From the NCBI GenBank assembly GCA_965224085.1, contig CBDCYI010000011.1:160001-224000 (forward strand): a DNA stretch of 64,000 nucleotides, given 5' to 3'. Each line of letters starts with the position of its first letter. The first letter of the stretch is position 1. Below, piece by piece: positions 1 to 12,791 of the stretch. The notes under the pieces are model-generated. The model did no database searches. It was not told the DNA's origin and saw only the letters and a list, made by a program, of their open reading frames with translations. Origin of the DNA: Candidatus Marinacidobacterales bacterium (lineage in GTDB: Bacteria > Acidobacteriota > Vicinamibacteria > Marinacidobacterales > SMYC01). A program made the translations under genes and the position numbers.

Positions 1-2475
1 CACGTTCTGCTTGAAGGCTTTCTCATCGCCGCCGTCGACTGCTTCGTGCGGAAAGCGGCGTCACGGCTGCGGCTTCGTCAGAGATTCGTCGAGACCGATG
101 GCGAGCAATTTGCGTCCTCTCTGCTCGAAGATGACATTACCTTCGATGACGACACGGTGGAGATGCTCCGCGACGAGCTTGCGACCTGGAAGGCGCAGTT
201 CGACGACCACGAGGAAGCGCCGTTTCGTATCGCGTTCCGTCTCGAACCCCCGCCCCCGCCGGATTCCGATAGCGAGGAGGACGCTCGAGACGATACGGGA
301 CCTTGGAAGCTCCGCTTTTTCCTTCAAGCTCTCGATGACGAGAGCCTTCTCGTTCCGCTCGCGCGGGTCTGGGAGCACGGCGGTACCTCGTGGCGCTATC
401 TCGAGCGACGGCTCGAGCGCCCGCACGAGATGGTGCTCGAAGCGCTCGGCCGGGCGGCGGCACTCTTTGCTCCCATCGAAGAAAGCTTGAAAGAGTCGCG
501 CCCCGAGTCCTGTTTTTTGGATTCGGATCAAGCCTACGCGTTTCTCCAGGAAGGCGCGTTCCTCCTTCGCGAGAGCGGCTACGGCGTGCTCGTTCCGTCC
601 TGGTGGGGCAAGCGTGAGCACGGCATTGGACTGAGCCTTCGCGTTGCGCCGCGTTCGCACGGCCCGAGAAGCGTGATGAGCCGTCTCGGGCTCGAAGCCC
701 TCGTCGAGTTCGACTGGCAAGTCGCGCTCGGCGGCGATAGCTTGAGCCGCGAAGAGTTTCTCGAGCTCGCCGACATGAAAAAGCCACTTGTTCGCGTGCG
801 AGGTCAATGGATCGAGCTATCCCCCGCGAGAGTTCAGGAAATCCTTGGCGCGATCGAATCGCGTCCAAAGATACCGGAGCTTTCGCTCGGCGACGTCTTT
901 CAGCTGAAGCTCGGCCGCCTCGGTGACCAGCGGCTTCCCGTGACGGACTTGAAGGCGACCGGCTGGGTCGAGGCGGTTCTCTCGCAGCTTTCGGGAAGTG
1001 AAGCCCTTCCCGAGGTCGAGCAGCCGGCCACGTTTCACGGGCAACTCCGCCCCTATCAGGTCCAAGGTTTGTCCTGGCTCGAGTTTCTCGGCCAATTCCG
1101 TCTCGGCGCCTGTCTCGCCGACGATATGGGTCTCGGCAAAACGATCCAGGTGCTCGCGCTCTTGCTGCGGATTCAGGAAAGGGGCGAGCTCGAGCGCCCG
1201 TTCCTTCTCATCTGTCCGACTTCGGTTGTGGGTAACTGGAGAAAGGAAGCGGAGCGTTTCTCGCCGAGCTTACGCGTGCTCGTACATCACGGTTTGGACC
1301 GACACGAAGGCGAAACTTTCGAGCGGGAAGCGAAGCGGCACGATCTCGTCGTCTCCACCTATAGCCTCGTTCATCGGGATCTCACTCAACTCCAAGCGAT
1401 CGCGTGGGATGGTCTCGTGCTCGACGAAGCGCAGAATATCAAGAACCCTCAAGCGAAGCAGACCCGCGCTTTGAGAAAGCTCGCAGCGCCGCGCCGTCTC
1501 GCACTTACGGGAACTCCGGTCGAGAATCGTTTGCAAGAGCTCTGGTCGATCATGGAGTTTTTGAACCCCGGCTATCTCGGTGCCGAAGCTTCTTTTCGGC
1601 GGCGCTACGCGCTTCCAATCGAGCGCTATCGTGATAGCGCCGCGACGGAAGAGCTACGCCGCCTCGTCGAGCCTTTCCTGCTTCGACGTGTCAAAACCGA
1701 TCCTAGCGTCATCCGGGATCTTCCGTCGAAGAACGAGATGAAGGTCTATTGCACGCTGACCCAGGAGCAAGGCACGCTCTACCAAGCGATGGTCCAAGAC
1801 AGCTTGGAGCGCATCGAATCTTCCGAGGGAATTGGCCGGAAAGGAGAAGTGCTCGCGGCGCTCACCCGGCTCAAACAGATCTGCAACCACCCAGCGCACT
1901 TTCTCGCGGACGGCAGCTCACTCTCCGCCCGCTCGGGAAAGCTCACGCGCCTGACGGAGATGCTCGAGGAAGTGCTAGCCGAAGGCGATCGCGCGCTCGT
2001 GTTCACGCAATATGCGGAGATGGGGAAGCTCATCGAGCGGCACTTGCGCGACAAACTCTCCGTCGACCTGGCTTTTCTCCACGGCGGCGTGCCATCGCAG
2101 CAGCGCGAGGCGATGATCACCGAGTTTCAAGAAAGGGATGACGGTCCGCCGATTTTTGTGCTCTCGCTCAAGGCGGGCGGCTTTGGTTTGAACTTGACGC
2201 AAGCGCGACATGTCTTTCACTTCGATCGGTGGTGGAATCCGGCGGTGGAGGACCAAGCGACCGATCGCGCGTTTCGCATCGGCCAGACGCGTTCCGTGGC
2301 GGTCTACAAGTTCATTTGCGCGGGCACGATCGAAGAACGCGTGGACGAGCTCGCCGAGCGTAAAAAAGAGCTCGCGGAAGCCGTCATCCAGCCTGGACAA
2401 GGCTCGCTTACCGAGCTCACGACGGAAAGCCTGCGCGATCTCTTCGAGCTGCGCGCAGAAGCTATCGAGTCCTGA
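1..2475 (+). CDS. SNF2/SWI2-family helicase (5' end lies outside the window)
   Basis: Frame is open from base 1; motifs LADDMGLGKT, LDEAQ, LTGTPVEN, FDRWWNP, QATDRAFRIGQ. Confidence 0.95.
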   Translation, partial: HVLLEGFLIAAVDCFVRKAASRLRLRQRFVETDGEQFASSLLEDDITFDDDTVEMLRDELATWKAQFDDHEEAPFRIAFRLEPPPPPDSDSEEDARDDTGPWKLRFFLQALDDESLLVPLARVWEHGGTSWRYLERRLERPHEMVLEALGRAAALFAPIEESLKESRPESCFLDSDQAYAFLQEGAFLLRESGYGVLVPSWWGKREHGIGLSLRVAPRSHGPRSVMSRLGLEALVEFDWQVALGGDSLSREEFLELADMKKPLVRVRGQWIELSPARVQEILGAIESRPKIPELSLGDVFQLKLGRLGDQRLPVTDLKATGWVEAVLSQLSGSEALPEVEQPATFHGQLRPYQVQGLSWLEFLGQFRLGACLADDMGLGKTIQVLALLLRIQERGELERPFLLICPTSVVGNWRKEAERFSPSLRVLVHHGLDRHEGETFEREAKRHDLVVSTYSLVHRDLTQLQAIAWDGLVLDEAQNIKNPQAKQTRALRKLAAPRRLALTGTPVENRLQELWSIMEFLNPGYLGAEASFRRRYALPIERYRDSAATEELRRLVEPFLLRRVKTDPSVIRDLPSKNEMKVYCTLTQEQGTLYQAMVQDSLERIESSEGIGRKGEVLAALTRLKQICNHPAHFLADGSSLSARSGKLTRLTEMLEEVLAEGDRALVFTQYAEMGKLIERHLRDKLSVDLAFLHGGVPSQQREAMITEFQERDDGPPIFVLSLKAGGFGLNLTQARHVFHFDRWWNPAVEDQATDRAFRIGQTRSVAVYKFICAGTIEERVDELAERKKELAEAVIQPGQGSLTELTTESLRDLFELRAEAIES

Positions 2476-6465: not shown

Positions 6466-6918
6466 ATGACAAAAGATCTGGCTCTATTCGTGCTGCGTCT
6501 ATCTGGTTTTGGTCTCGCCTTCGCGCATGGCTGGCAAAAGATCGCCATGCTCAGCTCGGGCGGTGGGGATCGTTTTGTGGCCGGTGTGGAGGCTCTCGGC
6601 TTTCCCCTTCCGCTAGCCTTTGCGTGGGCGGCAGGGCTCGCGGAGTTCGTGGGTGGGCTTGCGATAGCACTCGGCATCGGCACGCGCATCGCGGCCGGCT
6701 TCGCCGCTTTCACGATGTTCGTCGCTGCGATGTTCCGCCACCACTTGCCACAGCACATTCTCATTTGGCTGGGTGTTACGAGCGCGCCTGAAGACGTTGT
6801 CGCGAGCTGGGGCAACCCCGAGCGTGCGGCGAGCTACATGCTCATCTTTATGGCGCTCGTGCTCCTGGGAGGCGGCCGCTTCTCGCTCGATCGTTTCGTG
6901 AAACGCAACAAGAAGTGA
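6466..6918 (+). CDS. DoxX-family membrane protein
   Basis: LFVLR..G..FAHGWQK, AEFVGG, GGGRFSLD; RBS aagga. Confidence 0.9.
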   Translation: MTKDLALFVLRLSGFGLAFAHGWQKIAMLSSGGGDRFVAGVEALGFPLPLAFAWAAGLAEFVGGLAIALGIGTRIAAGFAAFTMFVAAMFRHHLPQHILIWLGVTSAPEDVVASWGNPERAASYMLIFMALVLLGGGRFSLDRFVKRNKK

Positions 6919-7280: not shown

Positions 7281-7426
7281 GATGGCGTCCCGAAGCGCGA
7301 ACATGGCTTCTCCGCGCGAGCCGAGATTGCGCACCGTCGTGAAACCCGCCATCAGCGTGCGCTTTGCGTACATCGCCGCGCGCAACGAAGCATGCACGTT
7401 GCTCTTAGTGTCTCACTCGGGGATGG

Positions 7427-7983
7427 TTGAAACCCCTCGCCTTCAGGCGAAGCCTTTAGGAGGCTTGCGGTACGATCCCCGGATGAAAGGATATCGGAAA
7501 TCATCGCACACGACGTATCAATTAAACTACCATTTCGTATTCATCCCGAAGTACCGCAAGCCGGTATTGAGAGGAGATGTAGCACTTCGCCTGCGGGAGT
7601 TGATTAAGAGAGATCTGTGCGACGCACCACATAGAAATACTGAAGGGCCATGTACGGCCAGAGCACGTTCATCTGTTGCTGAGCGTGCCGCCACGGCTGT
7701 CGCCGAGCCGAGTAATGCAGGCGATCAAGGGGAAGACATCGCACAAGCTGATGCGTGATTTTCGAGCGATCCGCAAGAAGTTTTGGGGTCGGCACCTGTG
7801 GGCGCGCGGCTATTTTGTAGCGACGAGCGGAAACGTGACCGATGAGGTTGTGGCCAAGTACATCGAGCTGCAAGGAGAGCTGCCGGAAGACGACGAGTCG
7901 TTCAGGGTAAGCGAGTAATCCTCCGCCGTGCGCCTTTAGGCGACTTTAGTCGCCCGCGAACCCATCGCCTTTAGGCGATGGAG
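7427..7983 (+). mobile_element. IS200/IS605-family element (tnpA only); ends approximate
   Basis: Subterminal hairpins tcgccttcaggcga and ccatcgcctttaggcgatgg flanking a Y1 transposase. Confidence 0.85.
7483..7918 (+). pseudogene. tnpA: IS200 Y1 (HUH) transposase with a frameshift near 7605
   Basis: YHFVFIPKYRK in one frame; EHVHLL, IKGKTS, LWARGYFVATSG, KYIE.Q in the next. Confidence 0.85.
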
Positions 7984-8553: not shown

Positions 8554-9933
8554 TCAGGCCTCGTCGAGACCGTGTTTCTTGAGAAGGTGCCGTAGCTGGT
8601 GGTAGCGGAGGCCGAGGCTGCGGGCGGCCTGGGCTCGGTTGCCCTTCGCGGTGCGGAGCGCGTCCGCGAGGAGCTGGCGCTCGAACGCCGTGACTTTGTC
8701 GTTGAACGTGCCGCCCATCGCGTGGAAGCGGTGGTCGCCGAGAAGGCCGATATCTTCTGGGGTGAGTTCGTTCGTCGTGTCGCGATAAACGGCGCGCTCG
8801 ATGATGTTCTTGAGCTCGCGCACGTTTCCGGGAAAGCCGTAGCTGTAAAGAAGATCGATAGCAGTTTGCGAGAGACGCTTTCCCGCGAACGCGGGTACTT
8901 CTTTCATGAACTGGTTGAGAAAGAACTGAGCGAGGATCTCGATCTCGCCTTCCCGTTCGCGTAGCGGCGGCACTTGGATCTCCTCGAACACGAGCCGATC
9001 GTAGAGGTCGTGAAGGAACTGACCTTTGCGCATCTTCTCTTTTAGGTCCGCATTCGTGGCGGCGATGATTCTTGTTTTAATTTGAATCTCTTCCTTGCCG
9101 CCCACGCGCGTGAAGCGGCGGTACTCGACGACGCGCAGAATCTTCTGCTGGAACGGAAGCGACATGTTGCCGATCTCGTCGAGAAAGAGCGTGCCGCCCG
9201 ACGCTTGCTCGAACTTGCCTTCGGTGGCGTGTGCCGCACCGGTGAAAGCACCTTTCTCGTGTCCGAAAAGCTCGCTTTCGAGAAGCGTATGCGGGAGCGC
9301 GGCGCAGTTCACGGCGACGAAGGGACCTTCGGAAAAACTTCCTTCGCGATGGATGGCGCGTGCGACGAGCTCTTTTCCCGTCCCTCGTTCACCCGCGACG
9401 AGAACGGGGCGTGGGACTTTGGCGACCCGTTCGATGCGGCGCAGCACTTCGGTCATCTGCGGCGACTCGCCTACGATGTGATAGCGGCTATCTTCCGCCT
9501 TGTGCAGGCGCGCTGTTTCCTGCTCGAGCGTTTTGGTCTGCTCCATCCATTGCCTCAGCCCAGAGAGCTTGTGGAGGAGCGTTTCGACCCGTGGCGCGAG
9601 CGGCGGGGTCCGCACGAGAAAGTCGGTGGCCCCTTTCTGAATCGCGTCGGCAACAGCCGCCACGCTGCCCGATTCGGAAACCGCGACGATGGGCACGCGG
9701 TCGTGGCGTTTGGCGAGCCGCTTGAGGACCGCGGCGCCGTCTTCGTTCCCATCACCGAGGCAGTAGTCGACAACGACGAGCTCCGGCGTCCGGCGCGCCA
9801 TGTGGCTCGCCAAGCTTCTTGCGCTTTCGACGATGGCGATGGTGCTCCCTTCGCCGAGGGTTTCGTGAAACGCCGCGGCGAGATCGTGTAGCTCACCCGA
9901 CGGTGGATTCAAAACAAGTACCGTGTCGATCAT
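8554..9933 (-). CDS. Sigma-54-dependent activator (REC-like + PspF-like AAA+ + HTH)
   Basis: GERGTGKE, ESELFGHEKGAFTGA, LFLDEIG, DLYDRLVFE, PGNVRELKNIIERAVYR, LGLRYHQLRHLLKKH. Confidence 0.93.
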   Translation of the reverse strand: MIDTVLVLNPPSGELHDLAAAFHETLGEGSTIAIVESARSLASHMARRTPELVVVDYCLGDGNEDGAAVLKRLAKRHDRVPIVAVSESGSVAAVADAIQKGATDFLVRTPPLAPRVETLLHKLSGLRQWMEQTKTLEQETARLHKAEDSRYHIVGESPQMTEVLRRIERVAKVPRPVLVAGERGTGKELVARAIHREGSFSEGPFVAVNCAALPHTLLESELFGHEKGAFTGAAHATEGKFEQASGGTLFLDEIGNMSLPFQQKILRVVEYRRFTRVGGKEEIQIKTRIIAATNADLKEKMRKGQFLHDLYDRLVFEEIQVPPLREREGEIEILAQFFLNQFMKEVPAFAGKRLSQTAIDLLYSYGFPGNVRELKNIIERAVYRDTTNELTPEDIGLLGDHRFHAMGGTFNDKVTAFERQLLADALRTAKGNRAQAARSLGLRYHQLRHLLKKHGLDEA

Positions 9934-9939
9934 CTGGAG

Positions 9940-9973
9940 TGAGATATTCTCTCACATATGAGAAATTATCTCA
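9940..9973. promoter_or_regulatory. Tandem palindromic TGAGA-N5-TCTCA boxes, probable enhancer (UAS) for the adjacent activator
   Basis: tgagatattctctca (9940-9954) and tgagaaattatctca (9959-9973). Confidence 0.7.
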
Positions 9974-10010
9974 GTACTAAAAGAATCCTAACTGCGATGA
10001 AACATCTATC

Positions 10011-10023
10011 TTTCAATGTCTTA
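10011..10023 (+). promoter_or_regulatory. IHF-like binding site
   Basis: tttcaatgtctta versus WATCAANNNNTTR (one mismatch); lies between the UAS and the -24 element. Confidence 0.55.
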
Positions 10024-10039
10024 CAGGTTTTTGATCGTT

Positions 10040-10055
10040 TGGCACAGATCGTTCA
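10040..10055 (+). promoter_or_regulatory. Sigma-54 -24/-12-like promoter
   Basis: TGGCAC-agatc-GTTCA; perfect -24, non-canonical -12 (TC instead of GC). Confidence 0.55.
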
Positions 10056-10118
10056 ATAGATTCCTGCAGAAGCCAGCTGCCGGTAGGTGGCCTGGAGAGA
10101 AATGGAGGAAGAGGGATC

Positions 10119-10175
10119 GTGATTCGTGTAACGGCTGTGGTCTTAATCAACGGCTTCGGCACCTCCTGGCGCTGA
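10119..10175 (+). CDS. Unannotated 18-aa peptide MIRVTAVVLINGFGTSWR
   Basis: GTG start after purine-rich GGAGGAAGAGG; TGA at 10173-10175; directly downstream of the sigma-54-like promoter. Confidence 0.55.
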   Translation: MIRVTAVVLINGFGTSWR

Positions 10176-10192
10176 GCTGGCTTCTTTAGCTT

Positions 10193-10231
10193 TCTGCATA
10201 GTTATGCTATATTAACGCATAATTATGACAC
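10193..10231 (+). promoter_or_regulatory. Tandem ARG boxes (ArgR operator) overlapping the argG promoter and start
   Basis: tctgcatagttatgctat + 3 bp + aacgcataattatgacac; classic 18-3-18 layout. Confidence 0.75.
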
Positions 10232-11436
10232 CTAAAAAGGTCGTTCTAGCGTATTCGGGAGGTCTCGACACCTCCGTCATCGTCCCCTGGTTGAAAGAGA
10301 ACTACGAGTGCGAGGTCATCGCGATGCTCGCGGACGTGGGACAGGGTGAAGATCTAGAAGCCGCCGCAAAAAAGGGCACGGCCATCGGCGCCAGGAAGAC
10401 GTTCGTCGAGGATCTGCGCACGGAGTTCGTGCGCGACTACGTCTTCCCGGCTCTGCGCGCCGGTGCTCGATACGAGCACGACTACCTCCTCGGTACGTCG
10501 CTCGCCCGGCCGATCATCGCCAAGCGTCAGGTCGAGATCGCACTCGCCGAAGGTGCTGCCTATGTCGCGCATGGCTGTACCGGCAAAGGCAACGATCAAG
10601 TGCGCTTCGAGCTCACGTTCCAAGCGCTCGCGCCCGAGCTCAAAGTCATCGCCCCGTGGCGTGAATGGGATATCCGCTCGCGCGAAGACGCGCTCGCCTA
10701 CGCGGAGAAACACGGGATTCCCGTCGCGCAAAGCAAAGAGAATATCTATAGCCGCGACCAGAACATCCTGCACTTGAGCCATGAAGGCGGTGCGCTCGAG
10801 CAACCGTGGACGCCGCCACCGGAGAATCTCTACCAGATCTCGAAGTCGCCCGCCGAAGCTCCAGCCGAGCCCGAGTTCGTCGAGATCGGGTTCGACAAAG
10901 GAACGCCCGTCTCGGTCAATGGCAAAGCGCTCGATCCGGTGCCGCTTCTCGAAAAACTCAACGAGCTCGGCGGTGCGCACGGCGTCGGCCGTATCGACAT
11001 CGTCGAGAACCGTTTGGTCGGGATGAAGTCGCGAGGCGTCTACGAGACGCCTGGCGGAACAATCCTGCACGCCGCGCATCGCTCTCTCGAGAGCATTACT
11101 CTCGACCGCGAGACCTCGCATTACAAAGCCGGGATGGCGATCAAATACTCTGAGATAGTTTATGACGGCCAGTGGTTCTCGCCGCTTCGGGAAGCACTCG
11201 ACACGTTCGTCGACCGAACGCAGCAAACAGTCACGGGCGACGTTCTCGTACAGCTCTACAAGGGTAGCGCCAACGCCGTCGGACGGCGCTCGCCCCACAG
11301 CTTGTACTCGGAGGATTTCGCGACTTTCGGTGAAGACGATGTCTACAAGCAAGCGGACGCCGAAGGCTTTATCCGTCTGTTTGGCCTTCCTCAGAGAATT
11401 CGCAAGCTGAGCGAGCGCGCGGGCGAGAGAGGATGA
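10225..11436 (+). CDS. argG: Argininosuccinate synthase
   Basis: [44 protein letters not shown]. Confidence 0.98.
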
Positions 11437-12791
11437 AGCTCTGGGGCGGCCGGTTCAAGAAGCCCACAGCACCGGAGTTCGAAGCACTCGGGATCTCGAT
11501 CGACTTCGACCGAAGGCTCGCCTTCGAAGATGTCTGCATCAACCGAGCCTATGCGCGCGAGCTTTCGGCAGTCGGTGTCCTCAGTGAAGCCGAGCTCGAG
11601 ACGATCATCCAAGGTCTCGAGAAGGTCGAGGCGCGGCTGAAAGAAAACCCCGTTCTCGAAGATGAAGACATTCATACCGCGGTGGAACGGCTGCTCTCAG
11701 AGGTCATCGATCCCGAGATCGCCGCCAAAGTTCCGACGGGTCGAAGCCGCAACGACCTCGCGGTCACCGAGCTTCGCCTTTATCTTGCGAGCGCCATCAT
11801 CACGCGCATCGCAGACATCAAGAAGCTTCAAGAGAGTTTGCTCGCGCAGGCGCGCGCTAACCAGGACGCCCTCTTGCCCGGCTACACCCATCTTCGCCGC
11901 GGACAGCCCGTCGTTTTTGCCCAATACCTCCTTGCCTATTTCTGGGCGCTCGATCGGGACCGCGAGCGGCTCGTGCAAGCTCGACAACGATCCCTCGGTC
12001 TTGCCCTCGGCGCGGGTGCTTTGGCCGGCAATCCGTTCGGGGTCGATCGGCGCCGGCTTGCGGACGAGCTCGGCTTCGAGCGCGTGCTTCCGAACAGCAT
12101 CGACGCGATCTCATCGCGCGACTACATTCTCGAGTTTCTCTCGGCCGGCGCCATACTCGGAACGCATCTCTCGCGTATGGCCGAAGATCTCATCTTGTGG
12201 TCGGGCGTCGAGTACGGCTTCGTCACCATCGACGAGAGCTATGCGACGGGAAGCAGCCTCATGCCGCAGAAGCGCAATCCCGACAGCCTCGAGCTCATCC
12301 GAGGCAAGTCCGGTAGACTCACCGGAAATCTCATGGCGCTCCTCACGGTCGTCAAAGGGCTTGCGACCGGTTATCAGCGTGACCTACAGGAAGACAAAGA
12401 GCCTGCCTTCGATACGTTGGATACGCTTGGCCTCGTGCTGCCGGTGATGGACGGTGTCGTTCGCACGCTTACCGTGAACCGCGCAGGCATGAAGCAAGCG
12501 CTCTCGCCCGATTTACTCGCCACCGACCTCGCCGAGTACCTCGTTCGGCGCGGGATTCCCTTCCGCAACGCGCACGCCATCGTGGGCGAGGTGCTCGCCC
12601 TAGCCGCAGAGAAGGGCGTTTCCCCCGGCGAGCTCTCGCTCGACGAGCTGCGCGGCTTCTCACCTGAGTTCGAAGACGACGTGTCCGAAGTCTGGGACTA
12701 CCGGGCCTCCGTGGCTCGACGCGATACCGAAGGTGGGGTCTCGCCCCGCGCGATCGAAGAGCAACTCGCGAAGGCCGAGAAACGGCTCTAG
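11433..12791 (+). CDS. argH: Argininosuccinate lyase
   Basis: [40 protein letters not shown]. Confidence 0.98.

Follow-up and report, generated by a model that had tools for sequence, protein, structure and literature searches.

A candidate sigma-54-dependent small RNA beside its putative enhancer-binding activator upstream of argG in one family of Acidobacteriota

A 64,000-nt stretch of the genome of a “Candidatus Marinacidobacterales” bacterium (phylum Acidobacteriota; assembly GCA_965224085.1, contig CBDCYI010000011.1, positions 160,001 to 224,000; here called the window) carries a small regulatory module flanked by doxX and argG. The module consists of a gene for a sigma-54-type transcriptional activator, a divergent control region, and a conserved element of about 120 nt that ends just upstream of argG. 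The genome (designated G000) comprises 6.87 Mb in 12 contigs and is 95% complete. The gap between the activator gene and argG (ATG at 10225) is 291 bp, and the wider G000 gap from doxX (6466-6918 to 10224) also contains junk sequence around the module. The best reading of this arrangement, to which roughly even confidence is given on the basis of the sequence and its conservation, is a lineage-specific small RNA (sRNA) that depends on sigma-54 and an enhancer and is encoded beside its own activator. The features of the locus, including open reading frames (ORFs), are as follows.

8554-9933, minus strand: ORF of the activator, a bacterial enhancer-binding protein (bEBP) of 459 amino acids (aa), from ORF translation and Pfam
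9940-9954 and 9959-9973, strand-neutral: twin palindromes, candidate activator binding sites (upstream activating sequences)
10011-10023, plus strand: IHF-like site, from sequence reading against the consensus
10040-10060, plus strand: sigma-54-type promoter block (promoter string at 10040-10055), from conservation in four loci
10066-10196, plus strand: predicted structured RNA of ~120 nt, from the conserved element and its fold, both ends being predicted
10119-10175, plus strand: GTG ORF of 18 codons (stop codon TGA at 10173-10175), with GGAGG at 10104-10108
10194-10228, plus strand: ARG-box-like AT-rich palindromes and argG promoter region, from sequence reading
10225-11436, plus strand: argG (Pfam Arginosuc_synth/Arginosuc_syn_C)
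11433-12791, plus strand: argH (Pfam Lyase_1/ASL_C2)

The activator matches PF00158 (Sigma54_activat) with an E value of 3.2e-66 over profile positions 1 to 166 of 168, and the GAFTGA loop, the Walker A motif GERGTGKE, and the LFLDEIG motif are legible in its translation. The AAA lid is of the AAA_lid_14 type (PF25601), and a Fis-type helix-turn-helix domain (PF02954, HTH_8; E 6e-08) occupies residues 416 to 453. The protein therefore combines the two features that define a bEBP, i.e., an AAA+ sigma-54 interaction domain with GAFTGA and a C-terminal Fis-type helix-turn-helix. The match of its N-terminal region to the receiver domain is weak (PF00072, Response_reg; E 2.8e-10, 40.8 bits, profile positions 18 to 98 only). 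The key receiver residues, in CheY numbering, are D12/D13 (the acidic pair, which binds Mg2+), D57 (the phospho-acceptor Asp), T87, and K109. Asp56 of the receiver-like domain is invariant, and NPP or SPP replaces the acidic pair in all four aligned sequences; the conserved Lys is kept in two relatives (G009 and G011) and is Thr in G000. As the domain keeps the Asp but lacks the acidic pair, and as no kinase gene adjoins, a classical neighboring two-component kinase is probably not the input of this protein.

The activator scores below every NCBIfam equivalog cutoff, with 346.8 bits against 558.6 for NtrC, 264.9 against 800 for LuxO, and 338.8 against 443.55 for the PspF model TIGR02974, the last of these matching the AAA+ core. 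In the PspF-pspA system, the bEBP gene is divergent from its sigma-54 target, upstream activating sequences and IHF sites lie in the shared intergenic region, and PspF lacks a receiver. The AAA+ core score is a point of likeness to that system, whereas the N-terminal receiver-like domain, the score below the cutoff, and the lack of any psp gene in the locus set the protein apart from PspF. Judged by these profile comparisons, it is an unnamed NtrC-family enhancer-binding protein and not PspF, and an initial annotation of the locus, which had described a PspF-like activator with pspA replaced by a micropeptide, is not supported in this respect: the score also falls below the NtrC cutoff, and nothing Psp-related lies nearby.

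The palindromes, IHF-like site, promoter string, GGAGG, and GTG ORF are all present where the initial annotation had placed them. Both palindromes are exact instances of the type TGAGA-N5-TCTCA (TGAGATATTCTCTCA at 9940-9954 and TGAGAAATTATCTCA at 9959-9973). They begin 7 nt upstream, in the transcriptional sense, of the activator start codon, which ends at 9933, and because of this proximity they may also autoregulate the activator gene. The exact palindrome occurs at three sites in the whole 6.87-Mb genome, against none for the reversed-pattern control, and two of the three are this adjacent pair. With up to one mismatch allowed and only the window searched, two sites were counted against a chance expectation of 2.01, and the weight therefore rests on the exactness and adjacency of the palindromes. 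The third genomic site (contig C9) was set aside as a chance occurrence, being a lone site within overlapping ORFs with no TGGCAC near it.

The IHF-like site, TTTCAATGTCTTA, has one mismatch to WATCARNNNNTTR, the consensus in the passage of PMC3045617 that describes such sites. Four genes of the HU/IHF family are present in the genome. The promoter string TGGCACAGATCGTTCA (10040-10055) belongs to a block that reads TGGCAC-N5-GTTCAATAGA. The sigma-54 consensus has GG at -24 and GC at -12 (GG-N10-GC; TGGCACG-N4-TTGCW). The -24 element TGGCAC is canonical here and the -12 element reads TC in place of GC, both being invariant in four of four loci. Furthermore, rpoN is encoded in the genome, and no sigma-70-like site was found between 9700 and 10500.

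The argument for this control region comes from relatives. A search of 41 genomes of the order, including G000, with the activator protein recovered orthologues in three of the 40 others: G003 (90% identity), G009 (80%), and G011 (79%, split between two contig ends). Beyond these, identity in the same search reached no more than 41%, and G027, for instance, has no orthologue. A species-representative collection yielded the activator in the same two records, G009 and G011; the promoter string had three matches in these species-representative genomes, one real (the G009 record) and two unrelated. When the whole intergenic region was aligned across the four activator-keeping loci (G000, G003, G009, and G011), conservation was confined to islands. 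Invariant columns made up 68% of the twin palindromes, 82% of the TGGCAC...GTTCAATAGA block, and 40 to 47% of the arms and apex of the downstream element. The corresponding values were 6 to 7% in the spacers, 29% in the weakly conserved IHF-like site, 0% in the 7 nt around the predicted start, 5% in the tail of the element, and 28% in the ARG-box region. Pairwise identity was 33 to 38% in spacers versus 90% in the promoter block. Since these sharp islands persist between genera whose activators are only 79 to 80% identical in protein, the modular footprint is, on this alignment, a pattern of selection and not merely of recent ancestry. The enhancer-type control region that the initial annotation had proposed opposite the sigma-54 activator is thus borne out, its features being the conserved islands of four orthologous loci.

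The element itself is single copy in G000 and narrowly distributed. It was detected by blastn in five of 19 genomes of the family, and beyond the family a sample of 401 genomes of the class gave only 22- to 35-nt matches (E 4e-4 to 1e-2), which were taken as chance. When 55 genomes of the order were searched with a covariance model of the four loci, six matched, all from one family: the four activator-keeping genomes, and G004 and G002 with decayed copies. An element-body pattern matched 11 stretches in metagenome contigs; 10 were unrelated, and one (L060) was homologous, matching the decayed G004 stretch over 225 nt compared by eye.

The output of this promoter had been proposed to be an 18-aa peptide, the product of the GTG ORF (MIRVTAVVLINGFGTSWR in G000), and the comparison of loci argues otherwise. 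Its counterparts are MIRATVVDLVLRLRHLLAVNWLLGFRA (27 aa) in G003 and MIRLTVVVLLISFGTYLAVSWLLSVWPTGGQLK (33 aa) in G009, 1-nt indels having shifted the frame in G003 and G009 after about codon 9 and about codon 15. In G011, GAG stands for GTG (ATCGAGT versus ATCGTGA), so that the start is lost, and such ORFs as this locus does contain are unrelated. The strings GGCTTCGG, CCTGGCG, and TGGCTTC, by comparison, are conserved at the nucleotide level across stretches read in different frames. With frames that differ and a start lost in G011, the element lacks a conserved reading frame, as is expected of non-coding sequence. Because indels break the frame within an element that is conserved at the nucleotide level, and because G011 loses the start, the 18-codon ORF is probably not a functional product. 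The C-terminal NGFGTSW tail is found in G000 only, and none of the three other activator-keeping loci has a short ORF ending in NG[FL]GxSW opposite the activator. Nor did the neighbors offer what a peptide signal or a ribosomally synthesized and posttranslationally modified peptide would call for: among the neighboring genes checked, no kinase, prenyltransferase, transporter, PspA or other psp gene, or modifying enzyme adjoins the module, doxX and argG standing there instead. The suggestion of a ComX-like signal or modified-peptide precursor is consequently not supported, with no conserved core motif in the three loci and no modifying or export genes adjoining. The locus carries a general caution, as a textbook ORF with Shine-Dalgarno sequence and start codon inside a conserved element proved to be no conserved gene.

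Folding predictions point to an RNA. From about 10066, the 5' end AGAAGCCAGC... pairs with the 3' end ...GCTGGCTTCT in a long imperfect hairpin with three helices, 27 pairs, and a 48-nt purine-rich apex, followed by a U-rich stretch. The predicted parts are a 5' arm (10068-10103), an apical purine-rich region (10104-10151) of the form GGAGG...GAGGGAUCGUG...GGYUGUGG, a 3' arm (10152-10187), and a U-rich tail (10188-10196). The same end-to-end hairpin is the minimum free energy (MFE) structure in G000 (z -2.0), G003 (z -2.5/-2.9 in two runs), and G009 (z -4.0/-3.5), and the plus strand folds better than the minus strand by 11 to 16 kcal/mol. G011, placed in the common register, retains its middle and inner helices by way of two-sided changes. 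In a MAFFT alignment, 84.3% of cells pair and three changes are double sided; in a model-fitted alignment, which leans to structure, 87.4% of cells pair with four double-sided changes, against 26 to 57% for slid partners. G-U cells outnumber A-C cells by 11 to 5 in the four activator-keeping loci. The hairpin is suggested, not proven, by these models. No relevant Rfam 15 match was found in 9800-10400 at E values up to 10, the only hit being a chance microRNA match (E 3.6) on the ARG box.

These features can be combined in a mechanism. Oligomers of the activator would bind the twin palindromes, ~100 to 120 bp upstream of the putative sigma-54 promoter at 10040-10055; the DNA would bend at the IHF-like site, and ATP hydrolysis by the activator would open the promoter. 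Transcription would start near 10066 and give a non-coding RNA of ~120 nt, the ends of which would pair as the long imperfect hairpin and present the purine-rich apex, with the U-rich tail lying just before the ARG-box promoter of argG. The RNA would then act posttranscriptionally on its targets, either by base pairing (Hfq is encoded in the genome) or by protein binding. The sequence features, their conservation, and the lack of a conserved reading frame were observed directly; from them we infer the dependence on sigma-54, the binding of the activator, the transcript ends, the RNA nature of the product, and its action in trans. The several GGA motifs also raised the idea of a CsrA sponge, which was set aside because the genome, 95% complete, yielded no CsrA gene.

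Several observations weigh against an sRNA made from this promoter. The transcript is predicted as such, including both of its ends, and no RNA run carrying the locus turned up among the public runs. The promoter departs from the consensus at -12, with TC for GC, and its string is not rare: TGGCAC-N6-TTCW occurs 18 times genome-wide versus 39 times in the reversed control, and the canonical TGGCAC-N5-TTGCW occurs 16 times versus 15, which is no enrichment. As the string is no rarer than its control, the promoter owes its credibility to conservation in relatives, on which the case as a whole rests for the same reason. A regulon could not be inferred from promoter-like strings across the genome, as these are not enriched over the reversed control. 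With regard to structure, the MFE fold of G011 is a different one (z -0.17/-0.13), and G000 folded with its flanks is unremarkable (z -0.62). Covariation is not significant, since 109 to 131 of 500 shuffles (MAFFT) or 34 to 48 of 500 (model fitted) reached the observed values, with four or five sequences compared. No compact intrinsic terminator was found, the terminator-like match being a weak 5-bp stem; because of this and the poorly conserved U-rich tail, read-through into argG is possible. Duplex energies between the RNA and the argG 5' region lay within the range of shuffles in four of four genomes by a crude method.

The state of the module in relatives also counts on this side. A tblastn comparison of the activator covered 19 argG loci from the family and excluded L090, a partial locus. 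Full or near-full genes are present in G000, G003, and G009, and in G011, where a contig edge intervenes, residues 1 to 136 are present. Five relatives keep fragments only, i.e., G001 (aa 341 to 459), G002 (337 to 458), G004 (1 to 84), and G008 and G015 (421/422 to 458), and the module is decaying in them; the other 10 loci gave no activator match. A remnant first read by eye upstream of argG in G010 received no support from tblastn. The parts of the module decay together in G004, a point in favor of the sRNA reading: the activator is truncated to its first 84 residues, the -24 TGGCAC has become TGCCAC, mutations have reached both the second palindrome and the GGAGG, and the hairpin fold is lost (z +0.46/+0.51). 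In G002, what remains of the activator gene has been fused to the element by a deletion, and the apex of the element contains an IS200-type transposase gene (PF01797, E 1.2e-38). The G003 activator (L075, ~1040-1200, minus strand) begins with GTG and has lost 1 nt among the codons that surround the receiver Asp; it may be a pseudogene, or the single-contig 10.2-Mb genome may contain an assembly error here. By these sequence comparisons, the module is dispensable and often lost. In eight loci of the family, doxX stands directly before argG or before the activator remnant (gap examined in L079, L080, L082, and L086 to L089). The module was either inserted once between doxX and argG or deleted many times.

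The main rival explanation, somewhat improbable but deserving more weight than the others, makes the module an accessory of the genes that follow: a conditional second sigma-54 promoter and structured leader for argG-argH, which would add expression atop an ArgR-controlled promoter, the hairpin serving stability, attenuation, or processing as part of the leader. In six of six loci (G000, G003, G009, G011, G004, and G002), the element points the same way as argG and immediately precedes it, no strong terminator separates the two, and sigma-54 is classically tied to nitrogen metabolism. Against this, argG has its own conserved ARG-box region, as the initial annotation had noted, and module-free relatives have a similar box pair there. 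The ArgR gene is encoded in the genome, with the ARG boxes as candidate sites. The argG ATG (10225) lies within the second ARG box and has no Shine-Dalgarno sequence, a near-leaderless type of start that a long leader would, we infer, serve poorly. Spacing between element and argG is not conserved, with a 77-nt insertion in G009 and an invariant fraction of only 5% in the tail. Moreover, argG is still single and intact in G001, G002, and G004, from which the promoter or the activator has gone, and the shared doxX-argG position is explicable by vertical inheritance alone.

The argG start is also of interest in itself. An AT-rich box pair of the type TGCATA-N2-TATGC precedes argG across the family (10194-10228 in the window; L079, L081, L082, and L088). 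The genus of the window, G009, and G010 lack the 5' untranslated region with its AAGGAG, and their ATG falls within the second box. The sequence suggests that the argG mRNA is near-leaderless in these organisms.

A second alternative, which appears improbable, is that the module was functional in the ancestor of the family and is now eroding, the G000 copy being intact but unused and its conservation reflecting recent common ancestry. This reading stays alive because the module is dispensable and often lost. It can also point to independent decay upstream of argG in G001, G002, G004, G008, and G015, to the IS200-type transposase within the G002 element and the 1-nt frameshift in the G003 activator, to a broken copy of IS200 adjoining the G000 activator together with ORF fragments that could not be assigned, and to the narrow distribution (the element in six of 55 order genomes). 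Disuse is harder to reconcile with the modular footprint, since the contrast between spacers (33 to 38%) and promoter block (90%) in genera with 79 to 80% activator identity needs selection, and with activator ORFs that are full length in G000 and G009. The broken IS200-type (Y1) transposase gene (7282-7918) is split over two frames (Pfam profile positions 2 to 34 and 56 to 121) and lies a short way downstream of the activator gene. Its intact relative is the insertion within the G002 RNA element (L046, 1848-2279).

A peptide-coding role for the transcript, as mRNA or dual-function RNA for a short hydrophobic peptide with a MIR(V/A/L)T(A/V)VV start and a variable C terminus, perhaps a small membrane protein, is quite unlikely: G000, G003, and G009 share the GGAGG, the GTG, and the opening ~9 codons, with ORFs of 18, 27, and 33 codons open (a further point against a purely non-coding RNA), GGAGG has become GTAGG in the decayed G004, and the G009 version is hydrophobic over ~23 residues, but the start codon is gone in G011, the C termini are non-homologous owing to the 1-nt indels, replacements in the common codons are as frequent as silent changes, nucleotides stay conserved through the differently framed parts, and no modifying enzyme, transporter, or kinase gene adjoins.

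The enhancer-dependent sRNA has counterparts in distant bacteria. Pxr of Myxococcus is an sRNA of ~110 to 120 nt with a sigma-54 promoter, encoded next to an NtrC-like activator gene. The element differs from it in phylum and fold, and no Rfam match, including Pxr, was found at E values up to 10. In the LuxO-Qrr system of Vibrio, qrr1 adjoins luxO. The Qrr RNAs are multicopy and Hfq dependent, with a conserved seed and clear terminators, whereas the element is single copy and forms one long hairpin. The likeness lies in an NtrC-type response regulator, LuxO, that activates small RNAs together with sigma-54, as the passages on Qrr in PMC11407668 and PMC13501541 describe. A parallel in layout is GlrK/GlrR (QseE/QseF)-GlmY of Enterobacteriaceae, in which, according to the promoter description in PMC3045617, the gene of the sRNA GlmY adjoins glrK-glrR and is driven from a sigma-54 promoter with GlrR and IHF sites. 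Both loci have an sRNA gene (here a predicted one) adjoining a regulator with receiver (here receiver-like), AAA+, and helix-turn-helix domains, palindromic sites upstream, IHF-type sites between, and a sigma-54-type promoter (PMC3045617). They differ in the palindromes, which are two copies of TGAGA-N5-TCTCA here and three of TGTC-N10-GACA there. In addition, the locus described here shows no sequence or Rfam relation to GlmY, has no kinase gene and a receiver without the acidic pair, belongs to another phylum, and has a transcript that is predicted. By analogy, the architecture would work like GlrR-GlmY and LuxO-Qrr and is none of these families by sequence.

Acidobacteriota are abundant soil bacteria, and to our knowledge almost no regulatory RNAs are experimentally known from them. 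No literature on sRNA together with sigma-54/RpoN in Acidobacteria/Acidobacteriota was found within the open full-text library. If the transcript is real, it would be the first candidate enhancer-dependent sRNA in the phylum. The locus also provides a genetic handle, with one activator, one unique pair of binding sites, one promoter, and natural “knock-outs” in sister species. The narrow distribution and the predicted nature of the expression make its importance moderate. A bolder version of the sRNA interpretation, improbable as a whole, would see an orphan pseudo-receiver activator with one structured RNA of an uncatalogued family as its sole genomic target, inserted between doxX and argG in one Acidobacteriota family and repeatedly lost; this RNA may be dual function, combining the conserved fold with a ribosome-binding site and a variable hydrophobic ORF.

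Two further features were noted in G000 outside the module. On contig C9 (L097, 590-650), two short convergent/divergent ORFs flank an extended, perfect, AT-rich palindrome (ACCTATAGTTGA...TCAACTATAGGT) that resembles the operator of a small two-gene cassette; the third TGAGA-N5-TCTCA site, a lone one, is close by. In the window, at ~21083-26150, a 1690-bp unit is present in three head-to-tail copies with 99 to 100% identity. Read by eye, each copy seemingly carries a transposase-like ORF, and an rRNA gene apparently begins at ~26.8 kb.

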